Below, piece by piece: positions 11,489 through 42,137 of a stretch of DNA of 64,000 nucleotides (its first letter is position 1; each line of letters begins with the position of its first letter). The stretch lies in UHGV virus genome UHGV-0277313; one strand, given 5' to 3'. The translations under genes were made by a program, and so were the position numbers. The notes beneath the pieces are model-generated. The model searched no databases and was not told the origin of the DNA. It was given only the letters and a program-made list of their open reading frames with translations. Origin of the DNA: a virus.

Positions 11489-13876
11489 ATGTCTGATCTA
11501 GTTTTTCAAGATTTAATTTCTAAAGATCCTAGCGTTCTTGTATTGTTCGATAAATTTGATTTTGATGATGTGAAAAAATCCAAAGCATTTACATCATCAG
11601 CAGCACGTGGGATTTTAAAGGATATTTATAGTCGCGGTTTTACGAATAATTCCGTCTGTGCGATGTATGTTAAAAATACAGCAGTGTTTGATTTCGATGG
11701 TAATTTAGAAGTATATCGTTTACCAAATGAAAAAGCAAAATCAAAAGGTCAGATTATTGTTAATGAGAAGGATAAAGCCGATTTTAAAAATAGACTTATT
11801 GCGCTATTAATGAGAAACGACTTCAAGTCTTTAATTATTTTAGGGAGAGAAGTTGCGAATGTACTGCAAGAGTTTGGATTTTATGGAGCTGGAAGTTGTT
11901 TAGATACAGCTAAAGAGATTAATTTTGTAGGCAATAAAGTTTTAACAATTGAAACTGTCAGTCCTTTAGAATATTCTTTAGGTTTGACTGAAAGAAATAA
12001 GTTCATTTCAGCAATAGATCAGATTTATTCGACACAGTATGAAGTCACATCTATTGATAATGCAAGTTACGTTGATATTGATACGTTTGCAGGGTATCTT
12101 CGTAAACTTGAAATATTATACGATAATAAAAAGATTGACTGTATGGGTTTTGACTATGAGACGAATTGTTCAGAGTGGTCAGTTCCGTGGGCGAAATTAG
12201 TTGCAGTTTCTTGTTCTGATCGTATTACAAATCACGCTTTTTCGTGTGCGTTGTATCATCCTGAAAAGATTATGCACCCTCGCAAAAAGACTTTGTTAAA
12301 GTGGTTGTTTGCACACATCTTTACAGAAACATTGACAACAAATGAAGAGTATATCAAGCTTGCAAAGAAGTTAGAGCATTTTTATAAAGATGTTTATCCT
12401 AGAATTGAGGAGTTACCGTATAAAGAAGTTCTGAATGACGATGAGTATTTTGTTCTAGAATCTTTGCCTGATTTGGTAAAAGTGTTTAAGAAAGCTGCAA
12501 AAAAGGCTTTTGAAGAAAAGACAAAAGCACATGAAGAATATAAAAAACTTATTTTTGAAGCGGTTAAACGTCTGACGTTTTTAATAAACGATACAGAGTA
12601 TCCGAAAAAGTTGCATGATTTTTATTATTTGCTAGATAAGGTTTTATCAAAAATTCCTGTTGTAGGACACAATATTAAGTTCGATATTGGTTGGTGTGCA
12701 AACATGTGTATTGGTTTGCGTAATTTACGTGTTAAAGCCGATACATTTGGTCAAGCTGTTGCTGTAATGGGGCAAAATTTAGGGACAAAATTAAATCTAG
12801 AATCGTTATCAGTTGACCTTTTAGGTGTTGAGAATAAATGGAAATCAGCATTTCATGCATCACCTCGTTTAGGTAAAGGATCAAAGTTACGTTTTGATCG
12901 TGTTCCTTTAAAGTTGTTAGGACCTTATTCTGCAGCGGATGCTATTACAACAGATTTATTGGATGAATACTTCCAAAAGAAAATGGAAGGTCAACCTATG
13001 AATCTTGTTGAAAAGGAACAAAACATTGCTATTGTCATGTTTTCTTTAGGTGAAGTTCATGGTTTTTCTATACATCCTGAAACAGAAACAAAATTGTATA
13101 AATGGGTTAACAATGGGTTAAGAGATTTACGTAATCAATTAGTTCAGCTTCCGACAGTAAAACGTTTTGTTGAAGATAGAAAGCAAGAGTTGCCTGAAAA
13201 GGAAGCAAGTTTATTTGAATTTAATACAAACACTTCTGGTGCGCAGTCACATAATGCAGCTGTTTTATTCAGGAAAGAATACTTTGGTCTAAAGTCATTA
13301 ACATCAACAGATTCAGGTTATCCTTCTGCTGATGCAGATACTTTAAAAGAGATAAAGAAACAATTGAGTGTTTCAATTAAACAATTTGAAACTGCTAAAT
13401 TAGGTGAAAAAGTTTATTGTGATAATAATGGTGAATTAATTACAAATAAAAATATTGATCGTTTTAAAGAAGCATGTACTTTTTGCGATAACTTGATTAA
13501 AACATCAGGGTTTAGTCAGTTAAACAATATGTATTATAAAGTTTCGTATGATGAGAAAAATGATCGACCTTTAGATAAATTTATTGCAGTATTTAAATTG
13601 GTAGGTGCAACAAAAACAGGACGATTGTCTTCACGTTTTCATTTAGCACCTAAAACAGGCGGCGTGCGATATGTTTATTGTTCAGCGTGGTCAAAAGATA
13701 ATATTCGTAAATATCAGTTTTCGCATGAACCAGGTGTTCGTTATGAACCTTTGTATGGCTTAATGGATGTAGTTTATGAAGACGGTACAACAGAAAAAGT
13801 GTCATACGGTGATTTATTAAATCGTGGTTATACAAAAGACGAAATAGAATCTATTTATAAAGCTAATCAAGTGTAG
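11489..13876 (+). CDS. family-A DNA polymerase, N-terminal half (3'-5' exonuclease plus N-terminal polymerase region ending at the TGRLSS motif)
   Basis: ExoI FDYETN, ExoII VGHNIKFDIGW and ExoIII YSAADAITT are present. The gene ends with KTGRLSSRF...; palm motifs A, B and C are absent. Confidence 0.8.
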   Translation: MSDLVFQDLISKDPSVLVLFDKFDFDDVKKSKAFTSSAARGILKDIYSRGFTNNSVCAMYVKNTAVFDFDGNLEVYRLPNEKAKSKGQIIVNEKDKADFKNRLIALLMRNDFKSLIILGREVANVLQEFGFYGAGSCLDTAKEINFVGNKVLTIETVSPLEYSLGLTERNKFISAIDQIYSTQYEVTSIDNASYVDIDTFAGYLRKLEILYDNKKIDCMGFDYETNCSEWSVPWAKLVAVSCSDRITNHAFSCALYHPEKIMHPRKKTLLKWLFAHIFTETLTTNEEYIKLAKKLEHFYKDVYPRIEELPYKEVLNDDEYFVLESLPDLVKVFKKAAKKAFEEKTKAHEEYKKLIFEAVKRLTFLINDTEYPKKLHDFYYLLDKVLSKIPVVGHNIKFDIGWCANMCIGLRNLRVKADTFGQAVAVMGQNLGTKLNLESLSVDLLGVENKWKSAFHASPRLGKGSKLRFDRVPLKLLGPYSAADAITTDLLDEYFQKKMEGQPMNLVEKEQNIAIVMFSLGEVHGFSIHPETETKLYKWVNNGLRDLRNQLVQLPTVKRFVEDRKQELPEKEASLFEFNTNTSGAQSHNAAVLFRKEYFGLKSLTSTDSGYPSADADTLKEIKKQLSVSIKQFETAKLGEKVYCDNNGELITNKNIDRFKEACTFCDNLIKTSGFSQLNNMYYKVSYDEKNDRPLDKFIAVFKLVGATKTGRLSSRFHLAPKTGGVRYVYCSAWSKDNIRKYQFSHEPGVRYEPLYGLMDVVYEDGTTEKVSYGDLLNRGYTKDEIESIYKANQV

Positions 13877-20172: not shown

Positions 20173-20679
20173 ATGATTGTAATTGGTTACCAAGGAATTG
20201 GGAAATCAACATTGGTAAAAGACAGCAATTCTTATATCGATTTTGAAAGCTCCAATTTCAAAATTAATGGGAAACGCCCGGATGGGTGGGAACAGATGTA
20301 TTGCGAAGCGGCGTTGGATTTAAGTCGTCAGGGGCACGTTGTTTTTACGGCATCCCATAAATGCATACGGGATTATTTGAAAGATCGCCAAGGTAGCGAA
20401 GTTGTGCTGATTGTTGCACCGTCCGTAGACTTGAAAGACTTGTGGTTGGAAAAACTTAGAAATCGTTACAAAGAAACTGGTCTTGAAAAAGATAAGTTGG
20501 CTTTGCTCAACGCAGAAGATTGTTTTGGCGAAAACATAAAAGAAATGCAGAATTATGCAAGTGTTTTCCCGTTTTATGAAATCACTGATATGAGCTACAA
20601 ATTGCGTTTTCTGTTTGATAACTTTTTAAAAGACGAAGAAGTCCTTAAAACTTTTGGATTTAAACGTTTACATGTTTAA
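20173..20679 (+). CDS. P-loop kinase-like protein (nucleotide or polynucleotide kinase-like)
   Basis: N-terminal GYQGIGKST Walker A. Locally elevated GC. Confidence 0.55.
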   Translation: MIVIGYQGIGKSTLVKDSNSYIDFESSNFKINGKRPDGWEQMYCEAALDLSRQGHVVFTASHKCIRDYLKDRQGSEVVLIVAPSVDLKDLWLEKLRNRYKETGLEKDKLALLNAEDCFGENIKEMQNYASVFPFYEITDMSYKLRFLFDNFLKDEEVLKTFGFKRLHV

Positions 20680-20789
20680 TCATGATTAATACCGAAGAAA
20701 ATGCAAGTGTAATTATTAATACTTAAAACTCAAAAACAAAATTTCGATTGAGAAAATTTTTAAGTTTCTTTAACAGTTAGGTAAGTAAA

Positions 20790-22784
20790 ATGAAGCAAGT
20801 AATAAAACGCGATGGAAAAGAAGTTAAATTTAATTTGAAAAAGATTGTATCGGCTATTCGTAGGGCTGGAGAGTCTTCTGGTGAATTTGGTTATGACGAA
20901 GCTTTAGATTTAACAAATTCAGTAATTCAAATGTTTGATAATAAAGAAAAAGCAACTGTTGAAGAGATTCAAGATGCTGTTGAAAAAGTGTTGAATGAAA
21001 ATAATTACACAAAGACAGCACGCGCTTTTATTGTGTATCGTGAAAAACATAATGATATGAGAAAAGATAATAATGTAATGATTGATGCTGTTCAGTCAAT
21101 TGATGATTATCTTGATCGTTCAGATTGGCGTGTAAACGCTAACGCAAATCAGGGGTATTCTTTAGGTGGTATGATTCTAAATACTTCTGGTAAAGTAACA
21201 GCAAATTATTGGTTGAGCCATGTGTACCCTAAAGAAGCTGGTGAAGCACATCGTAATGGTGATATACAGATTCACGATTTAGATATGTTAGCAAATTATT
21301 GTACTGGATGGTCATTGCGTGCATTGCTTCAGGAAGGCTTTAACGGTGTTAAAGGTAAAGTTGAAAGTAAACCACCAAAACATTTAGCTTCAGCTTTAGG
21401 ACAAATGGTGAATTTTTGGGGTTGTTTACAGAATGAGAATGCAGGTGCACAGGCATTTAGTAGTTTCGACACATATCTTGCACCTTATGTTCGTAATGAT
21501 AAATTGACATACAAACAGGTTTATGATGCTATTCAGGAATTTGTATTTAATGTGAATGTTCCTTCAAGATGGGGAACACAGACGCCTTTTACGAACATTA
21601 CATTAGATTGGACATGTCCGGAAGATTTGAAGGATTCACAACCTATAATTGCTGGTGAAGAGATGGATTATACATATTCTGAACTTCAACCAGAAATGGA
21701 CATGATTAATAAAGCCTTTATTGAAGTCATGATTAAAGGTGATGCACATGGACGTTTATTTACATTTCCTATTCCGACATATAATATTACACCAGACTTC
21801 CCGTGGGAAAGCGAAAATACAAAGTTGTTGTTCGAAATGACGGCAAAGTATGGGTTGCCGTATTTTCAGAATTTCTTGAATTCAGATTTGAAAGTTGGTG
21901 ATGTTAGAAGTATGTGCTGTCGTCTTCAACTTGACTTGCGTGAAATTAAAAAACGCGGTGGCGGTCTATTTGGTTCAGGGGAACAGACAGGTTCAATTGG
22001 TGTTATAACAATTAACTGTGCGCGTTTAGGGTATCTGTTTAAGAATGATATAACAGGTTTATATAAACGTTTAGATGAATTGATGAATATTGCTAGAAAT
22101 GCATTAGAACAAAAAAGAAAGTCATTAAATAAATGGATGGAGCAAGGTTTGTATCCTTATTCTAAACGTTATTTAGGTGGTTACAACACTTTGTTTTCAA
22201 CGATAGGAATTAATGGTGTAAACGAAATGATTCGTAACTTTACAAACGATGAACATGATATCACAGATGACTATGGACAGAAGTTTGCAATGTCTTTAAT
22301 GGATCATATTAATGAGGTGTTAAAACAATTTCAGGTTGAAACTGGTAATTTATACAACTTGGAGGCTACGCCAGGAGAAGGAACTACTTTTAGGTTTGCG
22401 AAAGAAGATAAAAAACGCTATCCTGAAATTATTCAAGCAGGAAAACCTGAAGCACCTTATTATACAAACTCAACACAGATACCTGTTGGGTATACAAATG
22501 ATCCATTTACTGCATTAAATCTGCAGGAAGGTTTGCAGAGACGCTATAGTGGCGGCACAGTTGTACACCTTTACATGGGAGAAGCAATGTCATCATCAGA
22601 TTCTTGCAAGACTTTAGTGAAGCGTGTTCTGGAGAATTATCACATTCCATATTTAACAATTACACCTACGTTCTCGATTTGTCCTAAGCATGGGTATATC
22701 TCAGGTGAACATAAATATTGTCCTATTTGTGATGAAGAGTTAACTTCACCAAAGCAAGAGCAATGTAAAGCTTGTAAGGGTTAA
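20790..22784 (+). CDS. nrdD: anaerobic ribonucleoside-triphosphate reductase
   Basis: N-terminal ATP cone and a C-terminal Cys cluster CPKHGYISGEHKYCPIC with a glycyl-radical-like GY. Confidence 0.9.
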   Translation: MKQVIKRDGKEVKFNLKKIVSAIRRAGESSGEFGYDEALDLTNSVIQMFDNKEKATVEEIQDAVEKVLNENNYTKTARAFIVYREKHNDMRKDNNVMIDAVQSIDDYLDRSDWRVNANANQGYSLGGMILNTSGKVTANYWLSHVYPKEAGEAHRNGDIQIHDLDMLANYCTGWSLRALLQEGFNGVKGKVESKPPKHLASALGQMVNFWGCLQNENAGAQAFSSFDTYLAPYVRNDKLTYKQVYDAIQEFVFNVNVPSRWGTQTPFTNITLDWTCPEDLKDSQPIIAGEEMDYTYSELQPEMDMINKAFIEVMIKGDAHGRLFTFPIPTYNITPDFPWESENTKLLFEMTAKYGLPYFQNFLNSDLKVGDVRSMCCRLQLDLREIKKRGGGLFGSGEQTGSIGVITINCARLGYLFKNDITGLYKRLDELMNIARNALEQKRKSLNKWMEQGLYPYSKRYLGGYNTLFSTIGINGVNEMIRNFTNDEHDITDDYGQKFAMSLMDHINEVLKQFQVETGNLYNLEATPGEGTTFRFAKEDKKRYPEIIQAGKPEAPYYTNSTQIPVGYTNDPFTALNLQEGLQRRYSGGTVVHLYMGEAMSSSDSCKTLVKRVLENYHIPYLTITPTFSICPKHGYISGEHKYCPICDEELTSPKQEQCKACKG

Positions 22785-28146: not shown

Positions 28147-28872
28147 TTAATCGACTATTACTTCAGATTTATCTGTTGTTTCGTTTAGTCTGTCAAGGTA
28201 GCTTCTAGCAATACCATAATTTCTTTGTAATAGGTATCGAGGTTTGCCGTCGTACATAAAGTTAATAAGTTTCAGGCATTCAGATTGATTAAAACGTAAT
28301 CTAAACAGTTTACCGTTTGTAACAATCTTTTTTGTTTCATTTATTACTTTATGTCTTACTAAAATACTTTTTACATTTTTTAGTACAGGCATGTAACCAA
28401 TAATTTCTGCAAACAGATGGTTGTTATGTAAACCGTCATAATAAAAAGAACCGTCGGCATCAAAAAGACCTCTGATAAAATCTTTTGAGATTTCATCTTG
28501 TAACAGGTCTATATGAATATCTCCACGGTCTTTTTTAAGTTTTGTTAATTCATAGCGTTTTAAAGCTTTATGCAACTTCCAGCTTCGAATTTCAAAACCA
28601 CATGATGGGTATTTATTTTTAGCAAGGAAACGTTTAATCGGTTTATCACTACCAATAAAATTTCTAAAATTGGTTAATAAATTTATATCCTTTTCAGCAC
28701 AACATATTCTGATTTTATTTTCTGTTGTACAGTTTCCTTCACCGTATAAATAACCAATCCAATATGCAGATTCATGATTTATACAATCAAACACTTGTTC
28801 ATTAAGTGTATATTTTCGTTTGTTCATTTTTACATCCTTTCGGATAAGTCTTCCGACTTGAGCTTTCCTCAT
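28147..28872 (-). CDS. LAGLIDADG homing endonuclease (free-standing)
   Basis: Two LAGLIDADG-type motifs: YWIGYLYGEG and IRGLFDADGSF. Confidence 0.8.
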   Translation of the reverse strand: MRKAQVGRLIRKDVKMNKRKYTLNEQVFDCINHESAYWIGYLYGEGNCTTENKIRICCAEKDINLLTNFRNFIGSDKPIKRFLAKNKYPSCGFEIRSWKLHKALKRYELTKLKKDRGDIHIDLLQDEISKDFIRGLFDADGSFYYDGLHNNHLFAEIIGYMPVLKNVKSILVRHKVINETKKIVTNGKLFRLRFNQSECLKLINFMYDGKPRYLLQRNYGIARSYLDRLNETTDKSEVIVD

Positions 28873-29905: not shown

Positions 29906-32281
29906 CTATTCTTCACGTTTACCATAAAAACCGTTGCCGACAAAATACTTGCTTTTGAAATCCATATTTGGGCAAGGATCTTCAAATTCAAGCTTCAGTG
30001 AAATAAGTTGTGTCGGGACTTCAATAGGTAACTCTTCACGTTCTTCTGGAGGGATAGGGTCACCTTCTTTCATCTCAAGTATTTTGTAGTCGTATGCTTC
30101 ATCAAGTTCACGTTTTAAATAATCCCAATTGCAGTTGCCTCCCTTGATATTTAAAATGAATTTACCATCCTTCTCTTCAAAAGATTTAATATCCATTTCA
30201 CGTCCCCATGATTGACCTAAACCAAAATCAATGAACATTTTGTTTCCGTTCATCCAATCATAAATAACATTTGGTACCGTACCTGCATGAAATTGACAAA
30301 TCTTAAAAACTGGAATTAATTCACCTGGGTATATGTCAAGATATGTTGAATCATGAACACCACCAATCATTACTGATTGTAAATCGTGCATCAACATCTC
30401 TTCTGCAATATGTGTACCTGCAATCCATGCCATACGGCTAGCGGATGAATTGTGTACAAAAACACCAGCTTCTAATGCGAAATTGTGTGTATTTTCATTG
30501 TTTTCAACTTCAATATCATATACTGAAATTTTGTTTGGTAGTTTAATTACTTCAACAGATGTAACTTTATGGTTGTTGAATAATTCTGCTACTAAACGTT
30601 CATAATTTTCTTTTGAAAAGTGCGGAACACTTGAAGCTCTAGCTCCTTCATTAATATAAGACAATCTGTATTCTTCAAAAATATTTTCGAAAGAAGAATC
30701 TAGTAATATATTTTTACCAAGTTTTTCAATAATTTTTAAAGAAAGTTTTTTGAACTTATAAAAAGTTGTATTCTTTCCACATTTTCTGATATTATTTTTC
30801 ATATGCTGTATCTTTTCTAGATCATTACCTTTCCAAATTTTATTTATTGTTTTTCTGGCAGATTCAGACAATTGTTCTTTAGACATACAGAATGCATTTC
30901 CATATGTTTCAATGCGTTTTTTTACCAAAGCTTTAACTGCTTCTCTTTGGTTAAAATCCCAATCTTTATAAAGTTCTTTTCTTTTTTTATTTTTTTCAGC
31001 CATTAATTTAGATTGTTTTTCAGAATGTTCTTGTGTTAAAAAATGTTTCCAAATATTGTTTTCACGTTTGCCTTCTCGTATTTCACGTACACGTTTTTGA
31101 GTGTCAATACTACGTTGTTTTGAAGTATATTTCAAACCCATTTGACGTAAATATTCGTGAACAGATACACCTGTCAGGTCAGCATGTCTTTTAATAGTAG
31201 ACATTACAAGAGATGAATGATATTTTATATGTTCTGCCTTATCCATAATAAGTAAATTATCAGGGTTGTTGTTTAATTTGTTGAAATCTTTGTGATGTAC
31301 TGCTTCATTTTTTTCAATAGTACGATCATAATATTTACTTACTATACGATGTACAGAGGCCCAAGGTTTTGTAGTTAAATCATTTCTTTTAACATATTTA
31401 TACCCTAACTTGTCATATTTTGTATAACAAGGCATTAAGCTTTCATTATTTTTTAAATCGATAGCATGTTTATATGTTCCATCCCTTAACATAAACTGGT
31501 GTTCAGGTGTGCATGTAATAATTTCGCCAGAATCTAATGTAACTTTACAAATTGTGTCAGTTTCTCCAGATTTAAAAGCGTTAATAATTTTGCCAGGTAT
31601 AATTTTACCATCATTACAACAAGATAAAACATACTTATTTTCAAAATTATTCACAAGGTTTTGAATTTCAACAACACTGCCATCTAATAAAGGTATTTTA
31701 GTATCACCAACAAAACATTGGATCCCACTATTCTGGCTTGCATTCATAGCATGATTCAACAACTTCCTGTTGCTTTTAGTGTCAGGCAACATTGCATCTG
31801 GTAACGGTCTAGTACAACCAAATACGTCAACAATATATCCATGCTCACGGGCGAACTTGTGTTGATATTCAACGTATGTTTTAATACCAGGGTATGCCCC
31901 CATCATTTTATCAATAGTTTCTTGAGCTTCTTCGACAGTGCATCCCCACTCTTTTGAAAAGTTGTAGGCTGATTTTCCATAGAGTAGACCAAACATTGTT
32001 GACTTCGCCTTTGAACGCAACCCAGAGTGGTGTTCTTTAATTTCTTTATCACTCATGTTTTTTAGTTCAGGAAAAATATTTCTGGCCGTATTACAATGCA
32101 GATCAGCACCTGACAGTAGTACATCTCGAAGTGTTGGATCACAACTAATAGCTGAAAAAATTCGAATTTCCAAAGTACTGTAGTCGTACGAAACTATTAT
32201 ACCACCACCGTTGTGTCTTGTCAAGCTTTTTATTTTCTTTTTTGCAAAATTTTTATTTTTTATTTCCATTTTTCTAGCCAA
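29906..32281 (-). CDS. family-A DNA polymerase, C-terminal half (motifs A, B, C) interrupted by an intein
   Basis: Motif A DYSTLEIRIF, motif B KSTMFGLLYG and motif C VHDS are present. An insertion from Cys189 to ...VHN is followed by SSAS. Confidence 0.8.
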   Translation of the reverse strand: MARKMEIKNKNFAKKKIKSLTRHNGGGIIVSYDYSTLEIRIFSAISCDPTLRDVLLSGADLHCNTARNIFPELKNMSDKEIKEHHSGLRSKAKSTMFGLLYGKSAYNFSKEWGCTVEEAQETIDKMMGAYPGIKTYVEYQHKFAREHGYIVDVFGCTRPLPDAMLPDTKSNRKLLNHAMNASQNSGIQCFVGDTKIPLLDGSVVEIQNLVNNFENKYVLSCCNDGKIIPGKIINAFKSGETDTICKVTLDSGEIITCTPEHQFMLRDGTYKHAIDLKNNESLMPCYTKYDKLGYKYVKRNDLTTKPWASVHRIVSKYYDRTIEKNEAVHHKDFNKLNNNPDNLLIMDKAEHIKYHSSLVMSTIKRHADLTGVSVHEYLRQMGLKYTSKQRSIDTQKRVREIREGKRENNIWKHFLTQEHSEKQSKLMAEKNKKRKELYKDWDFNQREAVKALVKKRIETYGNAFCMSKEQLSESARKTINKIWKGNDLEKIQHMKNNIRKCGKNTTFYKFKKLSLKIIEKLGKNILLDSSFENIFEEYRLSYINEGARASSVPHFSKENYERLVAELFNNHKVTSVEVIKLPNKISVYDIEVENNENTHNFALEAGVFVHNSSASRMAWIAGTHIAEEMLMHDLQSVMIGGVHDSTYLDIYPGELIPVFKICQFHAGTVPNVIYDWMNGNKMFIDFGLGQSWGREMDIKSFEEKDGKFILNIKGGNCNWDYLKRELDEAYDYKILEMKEGDPIPPEEREELPIEVPTQLISLKLEFEDPCPNMDFKSKYFVGNGFYGKREE
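30449..31717 (-). mobile_element. intein with HNH homing-endonuclease domain inside the PolA C-half
   Basis: The insertion starts CFVGDTKIPLLDGS and ends FVHN followed by S. It contains the HNH motif VHHKDFNKLNNNPDNLLIMDKAEHIKYH. Host motif B precedes the insertion and motif C follows it. Confidence 0.65.
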
Positions 32282-33387
32282 TCAGTAAAATCTTTCATGT
32301 TAAAGAATTCGAGATATTTTAAGTTGTTTTGTTTAGCTACTTCTCGTTTTTTGACATCCAAAACAGTCCAATTATGAATTGCTAAATTATAAAAATTTTT
32401 ACTTCTGCCTTTGAAATTGTTTTCATCAGCTGAAGCCTTCCATTTATTAACGAGTTTAATGTCTTCAATATTGTTTTTATCAAAAGGATGAGGTCCATGC
32501 GTCCACATTCCTTGATATTCAATAAATAAATCCAAAGAAGGAATATAAAAGTCACATTTATACGGATATCTGTCTTCCATATATTGATCTTTAACCTCGT
32601 TACCAAATTTTTCTTGTAATAGTTTTAATATTTCAACTTCTTCACTTGAGTAGTTAAAAGAGTTGTTTAACTTTTTAGTTGCATACTCTTTTTCACGAAT
32701 TTTTTTATTAAACTCGTCACCGCCGCCATTAGAAGGCCACAGTTGTTTAAACTGATCTGATTGTGAAAAGTATTCGACACCGTAACGTTCCTTCATGGTT
32801 TCTTTACGTTTGTTAATATCGCCGAATTTGTTGCCATATTTTTCGAGACGAGTTTCCTGACTTTTTTCTTGAAATTCTTTTACTTGCATAGCATTTTCGA
32901 CACCATAACGTTCTTTAATGGTTTCTTTAGCTTTTTTCTGATTTTCAGCATTAGAAAAAGGTGATTTTCCGTCCCATTTTTCAAGTGTCTTTTTATGAGT
33001 ATCTTTATTTTGAAGATTATATGCAACACCGTATTTTTTAATTGTAGATTGAACGCTACGTTTCAAGCGAAAATCTTTAGCGTGTTCAGCGCAGCAAGCA
33101 CTGTAAGTGACTTTAGCTTTATTAAACATGCCAATTTTACCGCAAGTACATGTTGCAGTTTCTACGATTTCTTCGACATTACCAATACTTTTCCACAAAA
33201 ACAATTCAAGATTGTTTGGAATATATTTAGTATGCAAGTTATCAAGAATTTGCTTGCATGCAGCTTTGTTTATAGAATTACCACGTTGTAATTCATCATG
33301 AAGTGTATGAAGATTAGGAAGGCATGTTTCCACACATTCTTTAAATTCTTCAACAGTCACATCTTGTCGTTTATTATAGTCAACCAT
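32260..33387 (-). CDS. homing-endonuclease-like protein with DUF559/Vsr-like PD-(D/E)XK domain and repeated N-terminal modules
   Basis: C-terminal CDFYIPSLDLFIEYQG, plus three or more approximately 35-aa repeats of the KERYGVEN..Q type. Confidence 0.55.
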   Translation of the reverse strand: MVDYNKRQDVTVEEFKECVETCLPNLHTLHDELQRGNSINKAACKQILDNLHTKYIPNNLELFLWKSIGNVEEIVETATCTCGKIGMFNKAKVTYSACCAEHAKDFRLKRSVQSTIKKYGVAYNLQNKDTHKKTLEKWDGKSPFSNAENQKKAKETIKERYGVENAMQVKEFQEKSQETRLEKYGNKFGDINKRKETMKERYGVEYFSQSDQFKQLWPSNGGGDEFNKKIREKEYATKKLNNSFNYSSEEVEILKLLQEKFGNEVKDQYMEDRYPYKCDFYIPSLDLFIEYQGMWTHGPHPFDKNNIEDIKLVNKWKASADENNFKGRSKNFYNLAIHNWTVLDVKKREVAKQNNLKYLEFFNMKDFTDWLEKWK

Positions 33388-33466: not shown

Positions 33467-34408
33467 TTATTTCTTTTTCCAAATCAAAAGGACTTCACCA
33501 TTTCTTGAAACATTACCTTTACGTTGAAAATGATTATTATTTGTATGGGAACCTATTTCTTGTTCTTTAATGAAATCGAAAACAGTATCATCCACCACGC
33601 TCATCATTTTTTCTTTAAATTTATTACTGATGATGAATGCGAAGATTTTGCAAGAATCTTTAGAAGTAGCTGTTTTTACAACATTACTCCACCAAATCAG
33701 AAAGTCTTTTTTGGAAAGGTGTTCAGCGCCTTTATCTGAATAGATTTCTTGATTAAAGTAAGGGGGACAAGTGAATACAGCTTCATAAGCTTGATCGGGA
33801 ATAAAATCTTCTGCATCATTGTTATTGAAGAAAACGCTATCAGAAATGTTATTATCAAGTGTTTTCATATCTTTATACATTTCTTTAACATTATTATATG
33901 TAGCTGTATTAATGTCATTGTATATGTATGTAATATCTGGAATTGAGATAGCTCCTAAACAACGGTGTCCCCACCCACCACAAGGGTCATATATAGATTT
34001 AACATTAAAATCTTTAATGAATTGTTTAATATAAAATGGTGAATGATAACTTTTGCCACGGTAGATTCCGGCTTTGCGAAACCCTTGAATAACTTCACCT
34101 TTAGTTAATTCACCAAAACCTTTATTGATATATTGTTTGCGATTTTGATATAGCCAATCACGCAAAGGCATTCCGTGATAGTTTTCATTTTTATTCCACA
34201 TATCAATTTCATGTTTAAACATTTCTTTTGATTGATATTTATTGACGATTTTATTTGTATTGTATAATGCAGAATATCCACGATCTTCTTTTTTAATATG
34301 TTTCCATTCTTGTAGAATTGATTTGTCAGAAACTTCGATATAAAGATCATCATAATAAGAAGCGGGGTAATTAGGTTGTGTTTTAGTTATCATTTTAGTT
34401 ATTTCCAC
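33467..34408 (-). CDS. DNA methyltransferase (N6-adenine or N4-cytosine, orphan)
   Basis: Motif I DPCGGWG followed by motif IV TCPPY. Confidence 0.7.
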   Translation of the reverse strand: MEITKMITKTQPNYPASYYDDLYIEVSDKSILQEWKHIKKEDRGYSALYNTNKIVNKYQSKEMFKHEIDMWNKNENYHGMPLRDWLYQNRKQYINKGFGELTKGEVIQGFRKAGIYRGKSYHSPFYIKQFIKDFNVKSIYDPCGGWGHRCLGAISIPDITYIYNDINTATYNNVKEMYKDMKTLDNNISDSVFFNNNDAEDFIPDQAYEAVFTCPPYFNQEIYSDKGAEHLSKKDFLIWWSNVVKTATSKDSCKIFAFIISNKFKEKMMSVVDDTVFDFIKEQEIGSHTNNNHFQRKGNVSRNGEVLLIWKKK

Positions 34409-35365: not shown

Positions 35366-38005
35366 TTATGCAATGTTGAATGTTGGATAACGTGATTTGA
35401 CATAAGGATGAATTTTGTCATCTTTATCTGTATACACGTAGAACAACTGTTTATCAGCGATTTGCGAACCACAAACCAAAGGCATATCTTCTTCAGCAAT
35501 AGGTTGCATCATTTCACCATTTGGCATTCTGAAATTGTAAATATTGATTACAATTTTTTCAGGAGCGAACAGATTGTTTTCTTCAATTTTATCAAGTGGT
35601 GAAGTATAGTCTTGACAAATGATCATGCCAGCCCATTGTGGTGTTGTATCCCAATGGTCGCATGAACAATTTGTAAAGTTCACTGTCATTGAAGTGTTTG
35701 TTCTGTTTGACAAGCGCAATACGTTTGATACATGTTCAAAGTAGCAATTATTAAAGTTAACAATTGCACCAGCTTGAGTACCAAAAATTGAAACAGCATT
35801 GTTTGTAAAGTTACCACGGAAGTTGCAATTTTCAAACAAGATGTTTTTAGCTAATTTATCACCAGCCAAACCAATTTCAATACAGTTATATAAGGTTGCA
35901 TCAATATTCATATTTCTGAAAGTAATTGTTTCAGAATCGCTGACAGCAACAACTGTATTTCCGCTAGATTTCTTGAATTCACCAGTGATTGTTGTATCAA
36001 TCATACGAGTTTCTTCAGCAGCAGAAACTTTTACACGGGCGTCGTTTGTGACTGTAGCGCCTTTTAGATCAACTGATTTACCTGTTGCACTCAATGTTGC
36101 AGCAACGTTACCTGAAATAACATAGTCTTTTGTTGTATCAGACAATGTTGTAGGTTCAGTTGTTTCAATTGTAACAGGTTCAATTGATGTTTTCGACAAT
36201 TGAGAAACACGTTCTTCAAGAGCAGTTAAGCGTGTCAAAGCGGATTCAGCTGAACCAGACGCTGATACAGCAGTTTGTTTAACTGAATTCAATTCTGATT
36301 TATCAGCTTTCAGATTGATAGAACCGTTCAAACCTTCAACTTCTGTCGTTAATTCAGCTTTATCAGCTTTTGTATTAACGGTTTCAGTTAAGGCTTCAAC
36401 ATCAGCTTTAGCAGCTTTTGTTTCTAATGTTGAATTGATACCTGAAACAGAGGATGTCAATTCATCTTTATCAGCCTTCAGAGCCAAACCAGAAGTTAAT
36501 TCTTCTTTAGAAGCGAGGCCTGAAAGATCAATACTCGCAACTTTTTCATCAACTTCAGATTTTGAATAAACTTCAGATTTTGCAGCTTTCAGTTCGACTT
36601 TTCCTGACAGTGCTTCGACTTCGGTTTTATCGGCTTTTAAAGCTAAATCTTTATCTGTTGCAATAACGTCATTGTCATTGATGGTAGCCGCGTCTTTTGA
36701 ATTCAGGTTCAAGTGAACTTTAACTGAACCAAAATCAGCAACGTCCCATTTTGACAACATAGCTAGATTTGCACCGTCACCATTTGTCATGACACCAGAA
36801 AGAGCACCATGATTTTCCATCTGAATAAATTTGCGACCTTCATAATCACTGAAAGTAACAACTTTATCTTTATTGACATCAAGCTGATTCTCGTTGAGGG
36901 TTAAGTTTTCAGACGCTGCTAATTTGTCTTGCTTTTTAGCAACTTCATCCATCGCGGCTTTTTCAGCAGCTTTAGCACGTTCAGCTTCTAGTTGTAGATC
37001 TGAAGCAACAGCGCCAACTTTTTCATTGACTTCTGTCTTTTCAGCAAATGTTGACAGATCAATTGTTTCAGAAAGTTTATCCCATTCTGAACCATCCCAT
37101 GCATAATTGGCACCAGTTGATTTAACATTGTAAACATCGCCAATTTCAGCATCAGAAGGTAAGTCATTTGTTGTTTCCACTTGACCTTTATATTTCATAA
37201 AGGAACTTGTTTTAGCATCAATTTCCGCTTTTGTGTAAGCATCGGTGATACCATAACCTTCAAGTGTTGTTGCTTTATCAGCTTTTTTGTTTAGTGTTAC
37301 TGACAGTTCAGCTTTCACAGTTTCAGCAGATGATTCAATTTGAGAAGTTGTTGTATCTGAATTCCAATAATTATCAGCAAGATTCTTTTTATCAGCATTC
37401 AAATCAGATTCGATTTTAGATAAATTTGAACCTAAAGTGTTAACTGTTGTTTGGTCAGCCTTTAGATCTAATTTTTCAGAAATAGTTGTCATTTCTGATT
37501 TGTCAGCTTTTTCAGCTAAAGAAGAATCAAGCTTGCCATCTAAATCTGAAACTGAAAGTTTAACTTCAGCAATAGCAGAAGTATTTTCAGCAACTTTCCG
37601 TTCCAATTCAGCTGTTGAACCACCACTTCCAGATTGTTCAACCCAATTAACAAACCCACCTTCAACAACAGAAAGGACTTTCCCTTCCATTCCTTCAGAA
37701 GAAGGTAAGCATTTTCCGGTTGTTGTTAAATCAGTATTTTCAGCAACATACCGACCGTCTTCTTTATACAGTTTTGTGTATGTGTTTTTGACACGAGCAC
37801 CATTACGAGCTAAATGAACTGTAATAGCAACACTGCTATCAAGTTTAATTTCACCCATATCAGATTGATAGCCTTCACGCGAAACGATCCATTTAACAAT
37901 CGTTCCTTCAGGGACTTCAATTTGATTGCGAGCAACTTCATTTAACTTAACGCTTGCGTCAGAAACGTTATCCACGAATAATTTAAACTTGCAAGTTGTA
38001 GCCAT
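35366..38005 (-). CDS. tail fibre/tailspike-like protein with C-terminal right-handed beta-helix (pectate-lyase-like) domain
   Basis: Repeated NCxF/NFxN rungs (NCNFRGNF, NFNNCYFEH, NFTNCSCDHW) at the C-terminus. The central region has repeated LKADK coiled-coil units. Confidence 0.7.
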   Translation of the reverse strand: MATTCKFKLFVDNVSDASVKLNEVARNQIEVPEGTIVKWIVSREGYQSDMGEIKLDSSVAITVHLARNGARVKNTYTKLYKEDGRYVAENTDLTTTGKCLPSSEGMEGKVLSVVEGGFVNWVEQSGSGGSTAELERKVAENTSAIAEVKLSVSDLDGKLDSSLAEKADKSEMTTISEKLDLKADQTTVNTLGSNLSKIESDLNADKKNLADNYWNSDTTTSQIESSAETVKAELSVTLNKKADKATTLEGYGITDAYTKAEIDAKTSSFMKYKGQVETTNDLPSDAEIGDVYNVKSTGANYAWDGSEWDKLSETIDLSTFAEKTEVNEKVGAVASDLQLEAERAKAAEKAAMDEVAKKQDKLAASENLTLNENQLDVNKDKVVTFSDYEGRKFIQMENHGALSGVMTNGDGANLAMLSKWDVADFGSVKVHLNLNSKDAATINDNDVIATDKDLALKADKTEVEALSGKVELKAAKSEVYSKSEVDEKVASIDLSGLASKEELTSGLALKADKDELTSSVSGINSTLETKAAKADVEALTETVNTKADKAELTTEVEGLNGSINLKADKSELNSVKQTAVSASGSAESALTRLTALEERVSQLSKTSIEPVTIETTEPTTLSDTTKDYVISGNVAATLSATGKSVDLKGATVTNDARVKVSAAEETRMIDTTITGEFKKSSGNTVVAVSDSETITFRNMNIDATLYNCIEIGLAGDKLAKNILFENCNFRGNFTNNAVSIFGTQAGAIVNFNNCYFEHVSNVLRLSNRTNTSMTVNFTNCSCDHWDTTPQWAGMIICQDYTSPLDKIEENNLFAPEKIVINIYNFRMPNGEMMQPIAEEDMPLVCGSQIADKQLFYVYTDKDDKIHPYVKSRYPTFNIA

Positions 38006-38539: not shown

Positions 38540-39040
38540 TTAAATTTTATCTAAAACGTCTTCATAGCTTTTAAAAACAATATCGCTTAGTGCATCTTTT
38601 GCGTTGTAGTATGTTTTGCAATAGTCATGCTCAAAGTCAATTGGTTCATTTATTTGATGTTTGCAAAAATCTTTTGTTTTGGGTTCGTATAGAAGAAAAG
38701 TTGTAGGAAGTCTAACAACTAACATTGGAGGATTTTGTTCAGTTGCACTTTTCCATGCAAAGAATTGTACTATAAATCCTTTGTATTGTTGTTTGATAAA
38801 AGAAGACATTTCATTAAATAAATCATAGTCTGTATCAAAATAAATTGTTGTACTATCAGTGTCTTCAGTAAAGCTTTTGATTGTTTCAAAATTAGCGAAA
38901 TTGTCTTCAAAATTTAGTTCGTTAGTTAAATTGTCTTTAGAAATAGTTAGACAGATAGCTTTACCGTTAATCGCATAGTAGCTAAACAGATAATAGACGT
39001 CATCAAATTTTGATTCATTGCAAACTTTAAAATATTCCAT
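38540..39040 (-). CDS. paralog family protein 1 of 7
   Basis: C-terminal ..YEDVLDKI and shared internal blocks. Confidence 0.55.
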   Translation of the reverse strand: MEYFKVCNESKFDDVYYLFSYYAINGKAICLTISKDNLTNELNFEDNFANFETIKSFTEDTDSTTIYFDTDYDLFNEMSSFIKQQYKGFIVQFFAWKSATEQNPPMLVVRLPTTFLLYEPKTKDFCKHQINEPIDFEHDYCKTYYNAKDALSDIVFKSYEDVLDKI

Positions 39041-39049
39041 AAAAATCCT

Positions 39050-39529
39050 TTAAATTTCATTAAGAACATCTTGATAGCTGAACATTTCAGGTGATTTCAA
39101 TGCATCAGAAACAGTATCATAGTATTCAATGATTTTAAAATTTTCTGTATTCTTTCCAGACCATAGCGGTTTGGCATCAAAATCATTTGCTAATCTATAT
39201 ACTTGAACAGCATCAATGTCAATTATAATTATTGAAGTATGCAACAAACCAATCACAGTGTGTCCGGTATTTTTATCAAGTAATGTGCAAATTACAGGTT
39301 CAATATTATTTTCCTCTAAAGTATCGTCTAAATGTGACAGCATTTCTTTCAAGGAATTGTTGTGAATAATTTTATATTCTTTATTTGGAATTTTAGAAGG
39401 AAATATATATAGACGATTGTCGTCTATATAAAGTGCTTGAACTGTTGTTGTATCTTCTGTTTTATTAAACACTTCTAAAACATAAATAATATTTTTTGAG
39501 AAGATAATATCAAATTGTTTTATTTGCAT
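39050..39529 (-). CDS. paralog family protein 2 of 7
   Basis: C-terminal ..YQDVLNEI. Confidence 0.55.
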   Translation of the reverse strand: MQIKQFDIIFSKNIIYVLEVFNKTEDTTTVQALYIDDNRLYIFPSKIPNKEYKIIHNNSLKEMLSHLDDTLEENNIEPVICTLLDKNTGHTVIGLLHTSIIIIDIDAVQVYRLANDFDAKPLWSGKNTENFKIIEYYDTVSDALKSPEMFSYQDVLNEI

Positions 39530-39541
39530 GTCCTGTTCCTT

Positions 39542-40054
39542 TTAGATTTCGTTTAAAATGTCAATATAATTTTTAAAGATAGGATCTTGAAAGGCGTCTT
39601 CTATGTTTGTATAAAGTTTAACATAATTATTTTCATCTTGTAATTTAGATTCAGCGCTTGTTGAACTTAAGACTTCGAACTTTTTACTGTTTGGTGAATA
39701 AATTAAATATTGGTCATCAATGTTAATTAACAATTTTGGTTTACTGTATGCACTATCACAAAATACAAATACGTCAGAAGTATTAAGCTTGAATATTCTT
39801 TTATACGATTGTTGTATGTCATTCAACATTTCAACATCTGTATCAAAATCTGTTTTGACATAATCGTCCAAATGTTCGTCAGTAAAGTTTTTAATAATCC
39901 AGATGTTAGCATGGTGATAATCACGATTATTTGTTGTAAGAGAGAAGTTTAATGTGTTGTTAACTTCAACACCTTCAATAACATAAAATGTAATGAATGT
40001 GTCAAGTACATCAATAGTTTGTCTTGTTTTTGAATACTTACAATATTTTGTCAT
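39542..40054 (-). CDS. paralog family protein 3 of 7
   Basis: N-terminus MTKYCKYSKTRQT, C-terminus FQDPIFKNYIDILNEI. Confidence 0.6.
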   Translation of the reverse strand: MTKYCKYSKTRQTIDVLDTFITFYVIEGVEVNNTLNFSLTTNNRDYHHANIWIIKNFTDEHLDDYVKTDFDTDVEMLNDIQQSYKRIFKLNTSDVFVFCDSAYSKPKLLINIDDQYLIYSPNSKKFEVLSSTSAESKLQDENNYVKLYTNIEDAFQDPIFKNYIDILNEI

Positions 40055-40080
40055 TGTTATATTCCTATTTAAATTTCGTT
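40017..40080. repeat. 64-bp repeat, copy A (identical to 41567..41630)
   Basis: gtttgtcttgtttttgaatacttacaatattttgtcattgttatattcctatttaaatttcgtt spans the gene start, the intergenic spacer and the neighbouring gene's end. Confidence 0.85.
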
Positions 40081-40584
40081 AAGTACATCAACATAGTTTT
40101 TAAAAATAGGATCGTTGAAAGCTTGCAGAATATCACTGTATTCTCGTATGTAATAATCTTCATTTTGAAGTTTCATGTTTAAAAGATATCGTGACGTAAA
40201 AAAGATTGTTTGTTTTTTAGGTGTATAAACTAAAGAATTGTTTTTATAATTTATAGCAATATTTGGTATACTTTTAAGTGATTCAGCATATACCATAATG
40301 TTGTTTGTATCAATATTATTTGCTTTCTTTATGGAATTTTCAAGATCTTCGAACATTTTGATGTCATTGTCAAAATCAACCTTCTGTAAATTTTCATTTG
40401 GAGTTTTAGGGTCGAAATTAAAACTTTGCGAAATGAGTAAATCATAGTAGTTATCTTTTTTATAATAAGTCAATAAAGTTTGAATTACACTACATTCGTT
40501 GTTCGTTGAAATACAATAATAGCTTTCATACATATCAACAAATTGTAAATGCTCTTCTCGATAATATTTATAAAAATTGCTCAT
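40069..40584 (-). CDS. paralog family protein 4 of 7
   Basis: C-terminal FNDPIFKNYVDVLNEI. Confidence 0.6.
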   Translation of the reverse strand: MSNFYKYYREEHLQFVDMYESYYCISTNNECSVIQTLLTYYKKDNYYDLLISQSFNFDPKTPNENLQKVDFDNDIKMFEDLENSIKKANNIDTNNIMVYAESLKSIPNIAINYKNNSLVYTPKKQTIFFTSRYLLNMKLQNEDYYIREYSDILQAFNDPIFKNYVDVLNEI

Positions 40585-40593
40585 GTCAAACCT

Positions 40594-41100
40594 TTAAATT
40601 TCATCTAAAACATTTATATAACTTAAAAAGATTGGATCTTTAAAAGCATCTGAAATATCACTATATGTCTTAAAATAATCATATTGTTTATTGATTTCTT
40701 CTCGAATGTTGGCAACAAAATCCAAAATGATATTTTTATAAATTGGGGAGTATATCAAAATATCATTTTCAATAGGTATAATGATTTTAGGAGTTTCTTT
40801 CAGATCTGCCATTTGCCAGACATATACTTCATAATTCTTTATTTTATACATATCTGTATATAAACGTTGTATATCTTCAAATAATTCGACATCACTTGAA
40901 AAGTTGATTCTTTTATAATCATTATCTAAACTATTAAGAATTTGTATGTTGCTGCTAGTGTTGACAACATACCCATTAGAACCGTCAACGTATTGTGAAC
41001 ATACAAAAGCAAAACATTGTTTATCAATCACATAAAAATTTCTTACGTGATGTCCGCTTTTATTTGTATTCTCAAAAACATATTTACAAAATTTTGTCAT
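40594..41100 (-). CDS. paralog family protein 5 of 7
   Basis: C-terminal FKDPIFLSYINVLDEI. Confidence 0.6.
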   Translation of the reverse strand: MTKFCKYVFENTNKSGHHVRNFYVIDKQCFAFVCSQYVDGSNGYVVNTSSNIQILNSLDNDYKRINFSSDVELFEDIQRLYTDMYKIKNYEVYVWQMADLKETPKIIIPIENDILIYSPIYKNIILDFVANIREEINKQYDYFKTYSDISDAFKDPIFLSYINVLDEI

Positions 41101-41604
41101 TTAAATCTCGTTTAATACGTCAATGTAATTTGTGAATATTAAATCTTTTAAAGCAGTTTCAACAAAGTTGTATTTTTGATGATAGGCAATCTCATTTTCA
41201 TCAAACCATTGATCAACGACATATCCACTGACAGCATTAACATCGTCTGTTGCAGGTGTATATATAATAGCGTCACTTTGAATGAACATTATAAGTTTAG
41301 GTTTAGAATAGATATCATTGAATTGAATTACTAAATTCTCAACTGTCTTCTTTTCATAAAAGCTTTTATATTGATTTTGTAAATCAGAAAACAACTCTAT
41401 TGCATTATTAAAATCTGTTTTGTTTTTTTCATCTAAAGAGACAATAATTTCATCCGCATTTCCTGAAGTAATATTATATGTAGGAAAGACACGCTCAACA
41501 GAAAATTGTACTAAAATATATTTTTTATTAATAATATAATAGGCTGTATAATGTTTTCCTGTATTTGTTTGTCTTGTTTTTGAATACTTACAATATTTTG
41601 TCAT
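41101..41604 (-). CDS. paralog family protein 6 of 7
   Basis: N-terminus MTKYCKYSKTRQT, C-terminus ..NYIDVLNEI. Confidence 0.6.
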   Translation of the reverse strand: MTKYCKYSKTRQTNTGKHYTAYYIINKKYILVQFSVERVFPTYNITSGNADEIIVSLDEKNKTDFNNAIELFSDLQNQYKSFYEKKTVENLVIQFNDIYSKPKLIMFIQSDAIIYTPATDDVNAVSGYVVDQWFDENEIAYHQKYNFVETALKDLIFTNYIDVLNEI

Positions 41605-41630
41605 TGTTATATTCCTATTTAAATTTCGTT
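41567..41630. repeat. 64-bp repeat, copy B
   Basis: Identical to copy A when read by eye. Confidence 0.85.
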
Positions 41631-42137
41631 TAAAACATCAATGTAATTTATAATAGAAGGGTCTTTGAAAGCTTCAGCAACTGTTTCATAACGTTTCAAA
41701 TATACAGCATCTTCTGTCATAAATTTAGGTATTTTGGTTGCTTTTATACTATTAACAGAATCATTCTCAAATGAATAGTAAAAACTATAATCAGTATCAT
41801 TTATTGCAAATAATATGGCAGGACGCTTGTTAATATCGGTTAAAATAACAAAAATTTGTAAAGGTAAATTTTCGAAATGTTTTTTAAACCCATTGACAAA
41901 GTCTTTAAACAATTCCTCAACATTATCAAACATGATGGTTTTATAATCTAAAAATGAAAGAGGTACATCTAGTGTAGGTGATGTATGTACGTCATATTTT
42001 AAATAATCATCTTTTAAATACTTTGTAAAAACAGATATAAATGCCGTTTTGTTAACTATGTATTTATTATATTCAGATTCTTCTTTAAATCGTGACGAAG
42101 TTGCTTCTTCATAATATTTAAAATATAGATTATTCAT
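41619..42137 (-). CDS. paralog family protein 7 of 7
   Basis: C-terminal FKDPSIINYIDVLNEI. Confidence 0.6.
   Translation of the reverse strand: MNNLYFKYYEEATSSRFKEESEYNKYIVNKTAFISVFTKYLKDDYLKYDVHTSPTLDVPLSFLDYKTIMFDNVEELFKDFVNGFKKHFENLPLQIFVILTDINKRPAILFAINDTDYSFYYSFENDSVNSIKATKIPKFMTEDAVYLKRYETVAEAFKDPSIINYIDVLNEI

Follow-up and report, generated by a model that had tools for sequence, protein, structure and literature searches.

Evidence for an HNH-endonuclease-bearing class 1 intein in the catalytic subunit of a two-piece family A DNA polymerase of a large gut phage

Our analysis of a 64,000-nt stretch of the virus genome UHGV-0277313 (the window, by which we mean this whole stretch) indicates that the segment at 30449-31717(-) is a class 1 intein containing an HNH homing endonuclease, inserted in frame in the catalytic subunit of a two-piece family A DNA polymerase of a large gut phage. 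We assign this reading a probability of about 0.93. The evidence comprises the reading frame across the segment, the sequence motifs and predicted fold of the encoded protein, alleles in which the segment is shortened or missing, and the substitution pattern in related sequences.

The initial annotation of this DNA, made from the sequence alone and silent on the strand, had described an insertion of about 423 amino acids (aa) between polymerase motifs B and C that begins with Cys (CFVGDTKIP), ends in His-Asn, and is followed by Ser. Translation of the minus strand bears out each of these points with exact coordinates: the segment encodes 423 aa (CFVGDTKIP...GVFVHN) followed by SSASRM, with the Cys1 codon, TGT, at 31717-31715 and the Asn423 codon, AAT, at 30451-30449, and the order of motif B, insertion, and motif C along the precursor agrees (Table 1). 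The host open reading frame (ORF), at 29906-32281(-), comprises 791 aa if translation starts at a TTG codon and 787 aa if it starts at ATG 32269, the start chosen by gene callers; precursor positions are given here in the 791-aa numbering. One uninterrupted reading frame of 791 codons crosses both intein junctions. The string VHHKDFNKLNNNPDNL...AEHIKYH, at precursor aa 328-355, corresponds to the HNH motif. Several samples yielded the exact precursor, on 15 contigs that share one gene order and of which one is a 276,920-bp scaffold, indicating that the insertion and the gene arrangement are not an assembly artefact.

Family A polymerases are identifiable by motif A (DxSxxE), motif B (RxxAKxxxFGxxYG), and motif C (HDS/HDE), together with a 3'-5' exonuclease domain. 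The host protein has all of these: Pfam DNA_pol_A matches the C-terminal half of the polymerase (C-half), Pfam DNA_pol_A_exo1 matches the separately encoded N-terminal half (N-half), and motifs A, B, and C are present. The spliced sequence matches polymerase I chains in the PDB with E-values of 2e-24 to 1e-17. The insertion point lies inside a conserved helix, N-x-x-(I/V/M)-Q-(G/S)-(S/T)-A, that is contiguous in every intein-free homologue and that we take to be the helix carrying Asn845 and Gln849 in E. coli Pol I.

Profile searches reveal Hint (intein splicing) blocks at both ends of the insertion, with scores that chance could not produce. Specifically, Pfam Intein_splicing (PF14890) matches intein aa 9-423 with 60.5 bits (cut-off, 35.8), while NCBIfam TIGR01445 (intein_Nterm) matches precursor aa 189-264 with 50 bits (cut-off, 24.5) and TIGR01443 (intein_Cterm) matches precursor aa 587-612 with 21 bits (cut-off, 15.6), the latter two falling exactly on the two junctions. 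The HNH motif that had been noticed inside the insertion is recovered as well: Pfam HNH_3 (PF13392) matches intein aa 122-163 with 32.3 bits (cut-off, 24.8), and eight PHROG HNH families match the intein. In an alignment of 40 sequences, consisting of the window's intein and 39 database relatives (alignment A2), the splicing residues Cys1, Thr70, His73 (block B), Asn382, His383, Asn412, Gly418, and Asn423 and the HNH residues His141, His142, Asn150, Asn154, His163, and His167 are invariant, and Asp401 and His422 are conserved in at least 90% of the sequences. The residue set (Cys1 in block A, T70-P-E-H73 in block B, VYDIEV...THNFAL in block F, GVFVHN in block G, and Ser+1) therefore identifies a class 1 intein, and rules out a class 2 intein, which has no Cys1, and a class 3 intein.

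An AlphaFold2 model of the intein has a mean predicted local distance difference test score (pLDDT) of 83, with most of both Hint lobes above 90 and the central helical region lower. The PDB structures that Foldseek ranks highest are without exception splicing domains of inteins (Mtu RecA, Ssp DnaB, Ssp DnaE, and Npu DnaE; probability 1.0), and the matches 2imz, 6frg, 1zd7, 1mi8, and 4kl5 have E-values of 1e-6 to 1e-5, identifying the horseshoe-shaped beta fold of Hint domains. Between the Hint lobes, the modelled HNH core consists of strands at aa 138-142 and aa 155-159 and a helix from aa 160, with strands and helix falling within aa 138-182; the PF13392 match, the PHROG families, the invariant residues, and these modelled elements together correspond to an HNH beta-beta-alpha-metal motif. 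The helical region that follows, aa 171-380, is presumed to be a putative DNA-binding module of the endonuclease and gives weak, sub-threshold NikA-like and MbpA matches. The canonical intein architecture inferred in the initial annotation thus holds: Hint blocks, catalytic residues, fold, and precise empty sites, described next, all agree.

The closest relatives of the C-half, 13 sequences that are 47-98% identical to it (P0001-P0013, alignment A1), reveal different states of the same site. The window shares the full-length HNH form, 419-423 aa, with P0001, P0002, P0005, and P0006. P0003, P0004, P0007, P0008, P0010, and P0012 instead have mini-inteins of 140-154 aa, from which the HNH and helical parts are missing and among which at least three deletion junctions can be told apart by eye. 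The site is precisely empty in P0009, P0011, and P0013. At the DNA level, allele L003 differs from the window by a single internal deletion of 855 nt, with flanks 98.1% identical, and allele L004 is without exactly nt 565-1833 of the gene (1269 nt), with flanks 95% and 98.7% identical and with 30 residues around the site identical to those of the window. P0011 (94% identical over the alignment) and a second empty allele, L016, a 313,762-bp IMG/VR contig whose C-half is without any intein, read NSGIQSSASRMAW with no insertion. The empty site is AATAGTGGGATCCAGTCCTCCGCTAGCCGT, and an empty-site stretch can be read from L004 or L016 (e.g., CAGAATAGTGGGATCCAGTCCTCCGCTAGCCGTATGGCA).

The polymerases of Pseudomonas phage QdP_Psa3 and of Maribacter phages are likewise uninterrupted, and their tblastn matches to the window break exactly at the intein borders. 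The in-frame insertion interrupts a conserved motif that homologues without an intein keep in one piece: in the window, NSGIQ and SSAS stand on either side of the intein, whereas P0011 and L016 read NSGIQSSAS and QdP_Psa3 reads NTPIQ/STAS. The initial annotation had named, as a finding that would speak against an intein, a homologous polymerase carrying the segment as a normal domain. The opposite is seen: the segment is precisely missing in QdP_Psa3, P0011, and L016, and in no homologue compared does it form a normal domain. The annotation's other such finding, a lack of Hint blocks in profile searches, is likewise contradicted by the blocks at both ends. Two polymerases that are unsplit and more distantly related, P0014 and P0023, carry mini-inteins at the window's site. 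The occurrence of full, endonuclease-deleted, and empty alleles in near-identical contigs is the picture that would be expected of a mobile intein. Scans of IMG/VR returned a single related contig, a megablast search against deposited phages returned no close DNA match, and the contig of one relative is labelled gut metagenome.

The substitution pattern indicates purifying selection. In comparison with L014, the Hint-N and HNH parts (170 codons) show 10 nt differences, every one of them synonymous, so that the rate of nonsynonymous substitution (dN) in the HNH part is 0. In comparison with L012, the HNH part has a dN of 0.16 and a rate of synonymous substitution (dS) of ~3.2, which is saturated, so that the resulting dN/dS of ~0.05 is rough. 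The C-extein has a dN/dS of ~0.02-0.06 in comparison with close relatives. The intein also differs from its host gene in composition, with a G+C content of 28.1%, versus 37.0% for the exteins and 32.7% for the window. We conclude that the endonuclease and the polymerase are both being maintained. In the comparisons with the close relatives L014 and L004, the first ~30 residues of the C-half, 32170-32269(-), are far more diverged than the rest (MEIKNKNFAKKKIKSLTRHNGGGIIV... versus MAENVKNLKKIQQIVAHKGGGTIL...), and dS is 0.25-0.42 in the N-extein, versus 0.07-0.08 in the C-extein. The pattern is suggestive of recombination, or of gene conversion, at the 5' end of the C-half.

Table 1. Features of the intein, its host polymerase, and the adjoining endonuclease-like gene. 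Nucleotide positions are those of the window; aa positions of polymerase motifs are those of the 791-aa precursor.
Feature	Position	Strand	Evidence
Complete intein, 423 aa, 49.4 kDa, Cys1 to His422-Asn423	30449..31717	-	Translation; PF14890, PF13392, TIGR01445, TIGR01443; same 1269 nt missing in empty allele L004
Hint N-terminal lobe, intein aa 1-98; block A (Cys1), block B (Thr70-x-x-His73, CTPEH)	31424..31717	-	C1, T70, H73 invariant; pLDDT >90; Foldseek intein matches, probability 1.0
HNH endonuclease core, intein aa 99-170, predicted beta-beta-alpha element; His141, His142, Asn150, Asn154, His163, His167	31208..31423	-	HNH_3; PHROG HNH families; invariant residues; model
All-helical region of ~210 aa, intein aa 171-380	30578..31207	-	Model all helices, pLDDT 46-94; aligns with same region of GyrB inteins; part deleted in mini-intein alleles
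Hint C-terminal lobe, intein aa 381-423; block F (VYDIEV...THNFAL), block G (GVFVHN)	30449..30577	-	N382, H383, N412, G418, N423 invariant; TIGR01443; pLDDT ~90-98
N-extein of polymerase C-half, 184 aa from ATG 32269 (TTG 32281 also possible); motifs A and B; end ...NASQNSGIQ	31718..32269	-	Pfam DNA_pol_A 1.2e-31; alignment A1; gene from this ATG recorded on 15 contigs
C-extein of polymerase C-half, 180 aa and stop; Ser+1 start (SSASRMAW); motif C GGVHDS	29906..30448	-	tblastn with QdP_Psa3 polymerase; alignment A1; dN/dS ~0.02-0.06 versus close relatives
Motif A, DYSTLE	precursor aa 33-38		
Motif B, RSKAKSTMFGLLYG	precursor aa 89-102		
Intein	precursor aa 189-611		
Motif C, GGVHDS	precursor aa 640-645		
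Polymerase N-half, 795 aa, 91.0 kDa; 3'-5' exonuclease domain, thumb, up to TGRLSS motif	11489..13876	+	tblastn with QdP_Psa3 aa 164-711; Pfam DNA_pol_A_exo1; PHROG 17 DNA polymerase; 14 homologue clusters of 785-803 aa
DUF7487 gene resembling homing endonuclease, 375 aa, free-standing	32260..33387	-	Pfam DUF7487 2.4e-14; PHROG 3339 'homing endonuclease' 3.2e-14

Established intein chemistry allows us to infer how the precursor would be processed. Translation would yield a 90.9-kDa precursor, in which Cys1 would attack the Gln(-1)-Cys1 bond (N-S acyl shift), aided by Thr70 and His73 of block B; the N-extein would be moved to Ser+1 (trans-esterification); Asn423 would cyclise, aided by His422; and an O-N shift would complete splicing. 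These steps would release the 49.4-kDa intein and a 41.5-kDa polymerase fragment in which the native ...NSGIQ-SSAS... helix is restored, and this fragment would then join the separately encoded 91-kDa N-half non-covalently. By the usual logic of intein placement, the unspliced precursor is expected to be inactive. In a mixed infection, the HNH core and the putative helical DNA-binding region would cut or nick the intein-free polymerase site, the presumed target, and recombinational repair would copy the intein in.

The rival explanations differ in which part of this reading they replace. In one, the intein splices but its HNH endonuclease is inactive, and the element is a 'domesticated' or decaying passenger that is inherited only vertically. 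The many relatives that have lost the endonuclease region show that an occupied site can do without the endonuclease, as this explanation would have it; but all HNH residues are intact in the window and invariant across the family, the HNH part has only synonymous changes relative to L014 and the low, if rough, dN/dS relative to L012, and empty and occupied alleles occur in contigs that are ~98% identical in their flanks, which points to recent gain or loss. We consider an inactive endonuclease unlikely. In another, the segment is a permanently inserted domain, the relic of an intein that no longer splices, and an HNH module of 423 aa stays in the mature polymerase, separating motif B from motif C. 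This is very improbable, since none of Cys1, Thr70/His73, block F, His422-Asn423, and Ser+1 is missing, since the insertion splits a strictly conserved ...N-x-x-I-Q/S-S-A... helix that intein-free homologues keep whole, and since relatives with 94-98% identical exteins work without the insertion or with a 142-aa version of it. In a last, the interruption does not act at the protein level at all and is a group I intron, a free-standing HNH gene between polymerase fragments, or a chimera of sequencing or assembly. Interruption by introns and by free-standing endonuclease genes is frequent in the polymerase genes of phages, and two such genes flank the C-half here, but the frame is open through both junctions as a single 791-codon ORF, the Hint blocks lie exactly at the borders, the identical precursor was assembled independently in 15 contigs, and GyrB, GyrA, and other proteins contain in-frame members of the family, which together leave this explanation next to no probability.

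Several points weigh against a splicing intein with an active endonuclease. The helical region, aa 171-380, is modelled with moderate confidence only, no known DNA-binding domain matches it significantly, and a search of the PDB with the sequence of the endonuclease and helical region returned nothing significant. Synonymous changes at the junction that might confer 'immunity' were considered and rejected: the window reads CAA/TCA and the empty allele L004 reads CAG/TCC, but the empty allele L016 reads CAA/TCA and the occupied allele L012 reads CAG, so that there is no correlation. The junction codons thus fail to separate occupied from empty alleles, and no recognition site can be deduced from them. 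The dN/dS values relative to distant relatives are rough because dS is saturated. Splicing and DNA cleavage by the window's protein are argued from motifs and model, and the non-covalent association of the polymerase halves is assumed from their conservation.

Comparison with known systems places the intein in a known family of HNH inteins whose classical host is GyrB. Among the best 120 database matches, 85 align over intein residues 1-423, and they do so in unrelated host proteins. Every example inspected starts with Cys1 and ends with Asn; the hosts include GyrB (DSAGG^C...HN^SAKQG, where ^ marks a junction) and GyrA, while the flanks of several others are uninformative on the host. Identity with the full-length relatives is ~30%, colinear across the splicing, HNH, and helical parts, and membership in the GyrB-type family follows from these end-to-end matches. 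Matches limited to the N-terminal third of the intein also occur in portal-type (PF07230) and RtcB proteins. The HNH inteins of GyrB (P0046 and P0100, to which NCBI gives the name 'intein-containing DNA gyrase subunit B') likewise comprise Hint-N, HNH, a ~210-aa helical region, and Hint-C over 423 residues, and share Cys1, His-Asn, and Ser+1 with the window's intein, at ~29-34% identity and with E-values down to 6e-48. The host site differs, being the polymerase helix ...IQ^SSAS... in the window and the Toprim sequence DSAGG^SAKQG in GyrB. Since identity is only ~30%, the window's intein is a separate lineage of the GyrB-type family.

Two further comparisons involve members of the same or a similar type in other hosts or sites. 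The intein part of the model for the intein-containing RtcB family protein (NF052663) matches precursor aa 182-615 with E = 1.3e-42 and belongs to the same HNH-intein family; its host is an RNA ligase, unlike the polymerase here, and the whole-protein score is 146 bits (cut-off, 1050) because only the intein is shared. Rhodobacter phage RcKickapoo (OP009274.1, RCKICKAPOO_74, annotated only 'DNA polymerase') has an HNH intein in a family A polymerase, with 35% identity over intein aa 1-168. Its intein interrupts a different sequence, TVTGRS^C...VHN^SDNP, which precedes motif A; that polymerase is unsplit, and its equivalent of the window's site is empty (AINSPVQSIASD).

In a survey of 50,697 deposited phage genomes, full-length relatives of the intein are limited to Bacillus phage SP-15, where the host is a hypothetical protein, and a single record of an uncultured megaphage. 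No intein of this family occurs at this polymerase site, so that the element is a new allele of a known family, at a host site new to that family. What had seemed to be intein matches in two other polymerases, those of Thermus phage phiFa and Enterobacter phage KKP_3711, proved to be alignment overhang; neither has an insertion. Our literature searches, of incomplete coverage, returned no paper on an intein at this family A polymerase site. In the literature, in-frame inteins of the HNH type, the class to which those of GyrB belong, date back to Dalgaard et al. 1997 (cited in bioRxiv 10.1101/2025.01.02.630785). LAGLIDADG and HNH are the intein endonuclease types listed by Dassa et al. 2009 (PMC2677866), and a 2025 survey of actinophages describes HNH inteins as a rarer, 'non-canonical' type (bioRxiv 10.1101/2025.01.02.630785).

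The polymerase is split as well as intein-bearing, as had been proposed at the outset. The unsplit 1066-aa polymerase of QdP_Psa3 maps by tblastn to two genes of the window: aa 164-711 to 12119-13750(+), in the N-half gene, and aa 738-917 and aa 912-1024 to 32278-31703(-) and 30451-30104(-), respectively, in the C-half gene, on either side of the intein. The two genes are convergent, on opposite strands, and 16 kb apart. The break lies past the TGRLSS motif but before motif A, in a stretch specific to the lineage; the C-half begins ~20 residues before motif A, and its Pfam match starts at profile position 137 of 381. The split is conserved, with all 13 relatives of the C-half starting at the same place and all 14 relatives of the N-half comprising 785-803 aa, and a 174,558-bp contig shows the N-half side of the same arrangement. 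An 879-aa ORF at 35366-38005(-), considered as a candidate N-half, encodes a fibre-like structural protein and not a polymerase.

The split is unrelated to the intein and uses no split intein. A split intein or fractured gene at the break was rejected: the end of the N-half is extein sequence homologous to the unsplit QdP_Psa3 polymerase, and the start of the C-half has no His-Asn-Cys/Ser/Thr junction. A tblastn search with three inteins across the window returned no other Hint sequence, and the split is present also in alleles without the intein and without the adjoining endonuclease gene. Polymerases consisting of two polypeptides are known from T4-like phages, in which gp43 genes are broken around a homing endonuclease gene, from 'fractured genes' (Dassa et al. 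2009, PMC2677866), and from the split PolA of OM43 phages (PMC10580990). In intein-free split phage polymerases, an endonuclease-like gene abuts one half, as the DUF7487 gene does here. The arrangement in the window differs in that its halves are not adjacent but 16 kb apart on opposite strands, and in that there is no split intein at the break and the endonuclease-like gene is not the cause of the split.

The DUF7487 gene adjoins the C-half on its upstream side, sharing 10 nt with the start of the C-half, and is a neighbour rather than a part of the intein. Its product has repeated KERYGVE-like motifs and a CDFYIP...EYQG motif. The gene is missing upstream of the C-half in L012, L013, and L016, and is therefore probably a separate, free-standing mobile endonuclease gene; the polymerases of these same three relatives are split, which rules out this gene as the cause of the split. 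Shortly downstream of the C-half, at 28147-28872(-), is a gene for a 241-aa LAGLIDADG-like endonuclease (PHROG 4645, 8e-30; Pfam LAGLIDADG_3 just under the cut-off), the third endonuclease-type gene within 6 kb. Just upstream of the DUF7487 gene, at 33467-34408(-), is a gene that in L016 directly abuts the polymerase C-half; its 313-aa product has an FTCPPY motif and matches PHROG DNA methyltransferases weakly. On the same strand, seven diverged paralogous genes (159-172 aa, 24-39% identical) follow one another in tandem at 38540-42137(-), of which the close relative L003 has only three copies.

Relatives in alignment A1 (P0002, P0006, and P0008-P0013) have inteins at two further polymerase sites. 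Site a lies in motif B (KAKS^C...HN^CMFGLLYG) and carries mini-inteins of ~135 aa; site b (NAxQN^C...^SPIQ) precedes the window's site by four codons. P0010 carries inteins at all three sites, two of them separated only by the residues SPIQ. We considered whether the site-b intein is a recent four-codon jump of the window's intein and obtained no support for this; the two are 39% identical, no closer than inteins of the family in other host proteins (40-48% over the same part). Outside the polymerase, a closely related 174.6-kb contig, L005, encodes at 20558-22388 an anaerobic ribonucleotide reductase (NrdD) of 955 aa with at least two intein-like insertion starts (SRWG^CVLPDTEIL... and VRSMC^PLTGDTEV...), whereas the 664-aa NrdD of the window, at 20790-22784(+), is without both. 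L005 also has an IS605 OrfB/TnpB gene that the window does not have.

The finding leaves the understanding of inteins unchanged: the element is a well-behaved, known kind of selfish element at a new site and will not surprise specialists. The allele is new to phage isolates, yet common in gut metagenome assemblies. The full, several independent mini (140-154 aa), and empty alleles represent stages of the homing cycle within one gene, and the naturally minimised Cys1/Ser+1 inteins are candidate tools for protein engineering. More speculatively, and in our view improbably, the polymerase of this clade could be the product of a three-step assembly, with two subunits encoded on opposite strands and one of them spliced first; splicing at the catalytic helix could act as a conditional checkpoint on replication, for example one responsive to redox state or temperature; and the three sites could form an intein hot spot, in which related HNH inteins at the two sites four codons apart would compete for overlapping target DNA. 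For the phage itself, the mature catalytic subunit would be the 364-aa spliced protein rather than the 787-aa ORF, working with the product of a second gene 16 kb away, and polymerase-based surveys and automatic annotation would misread both polymerase genes.

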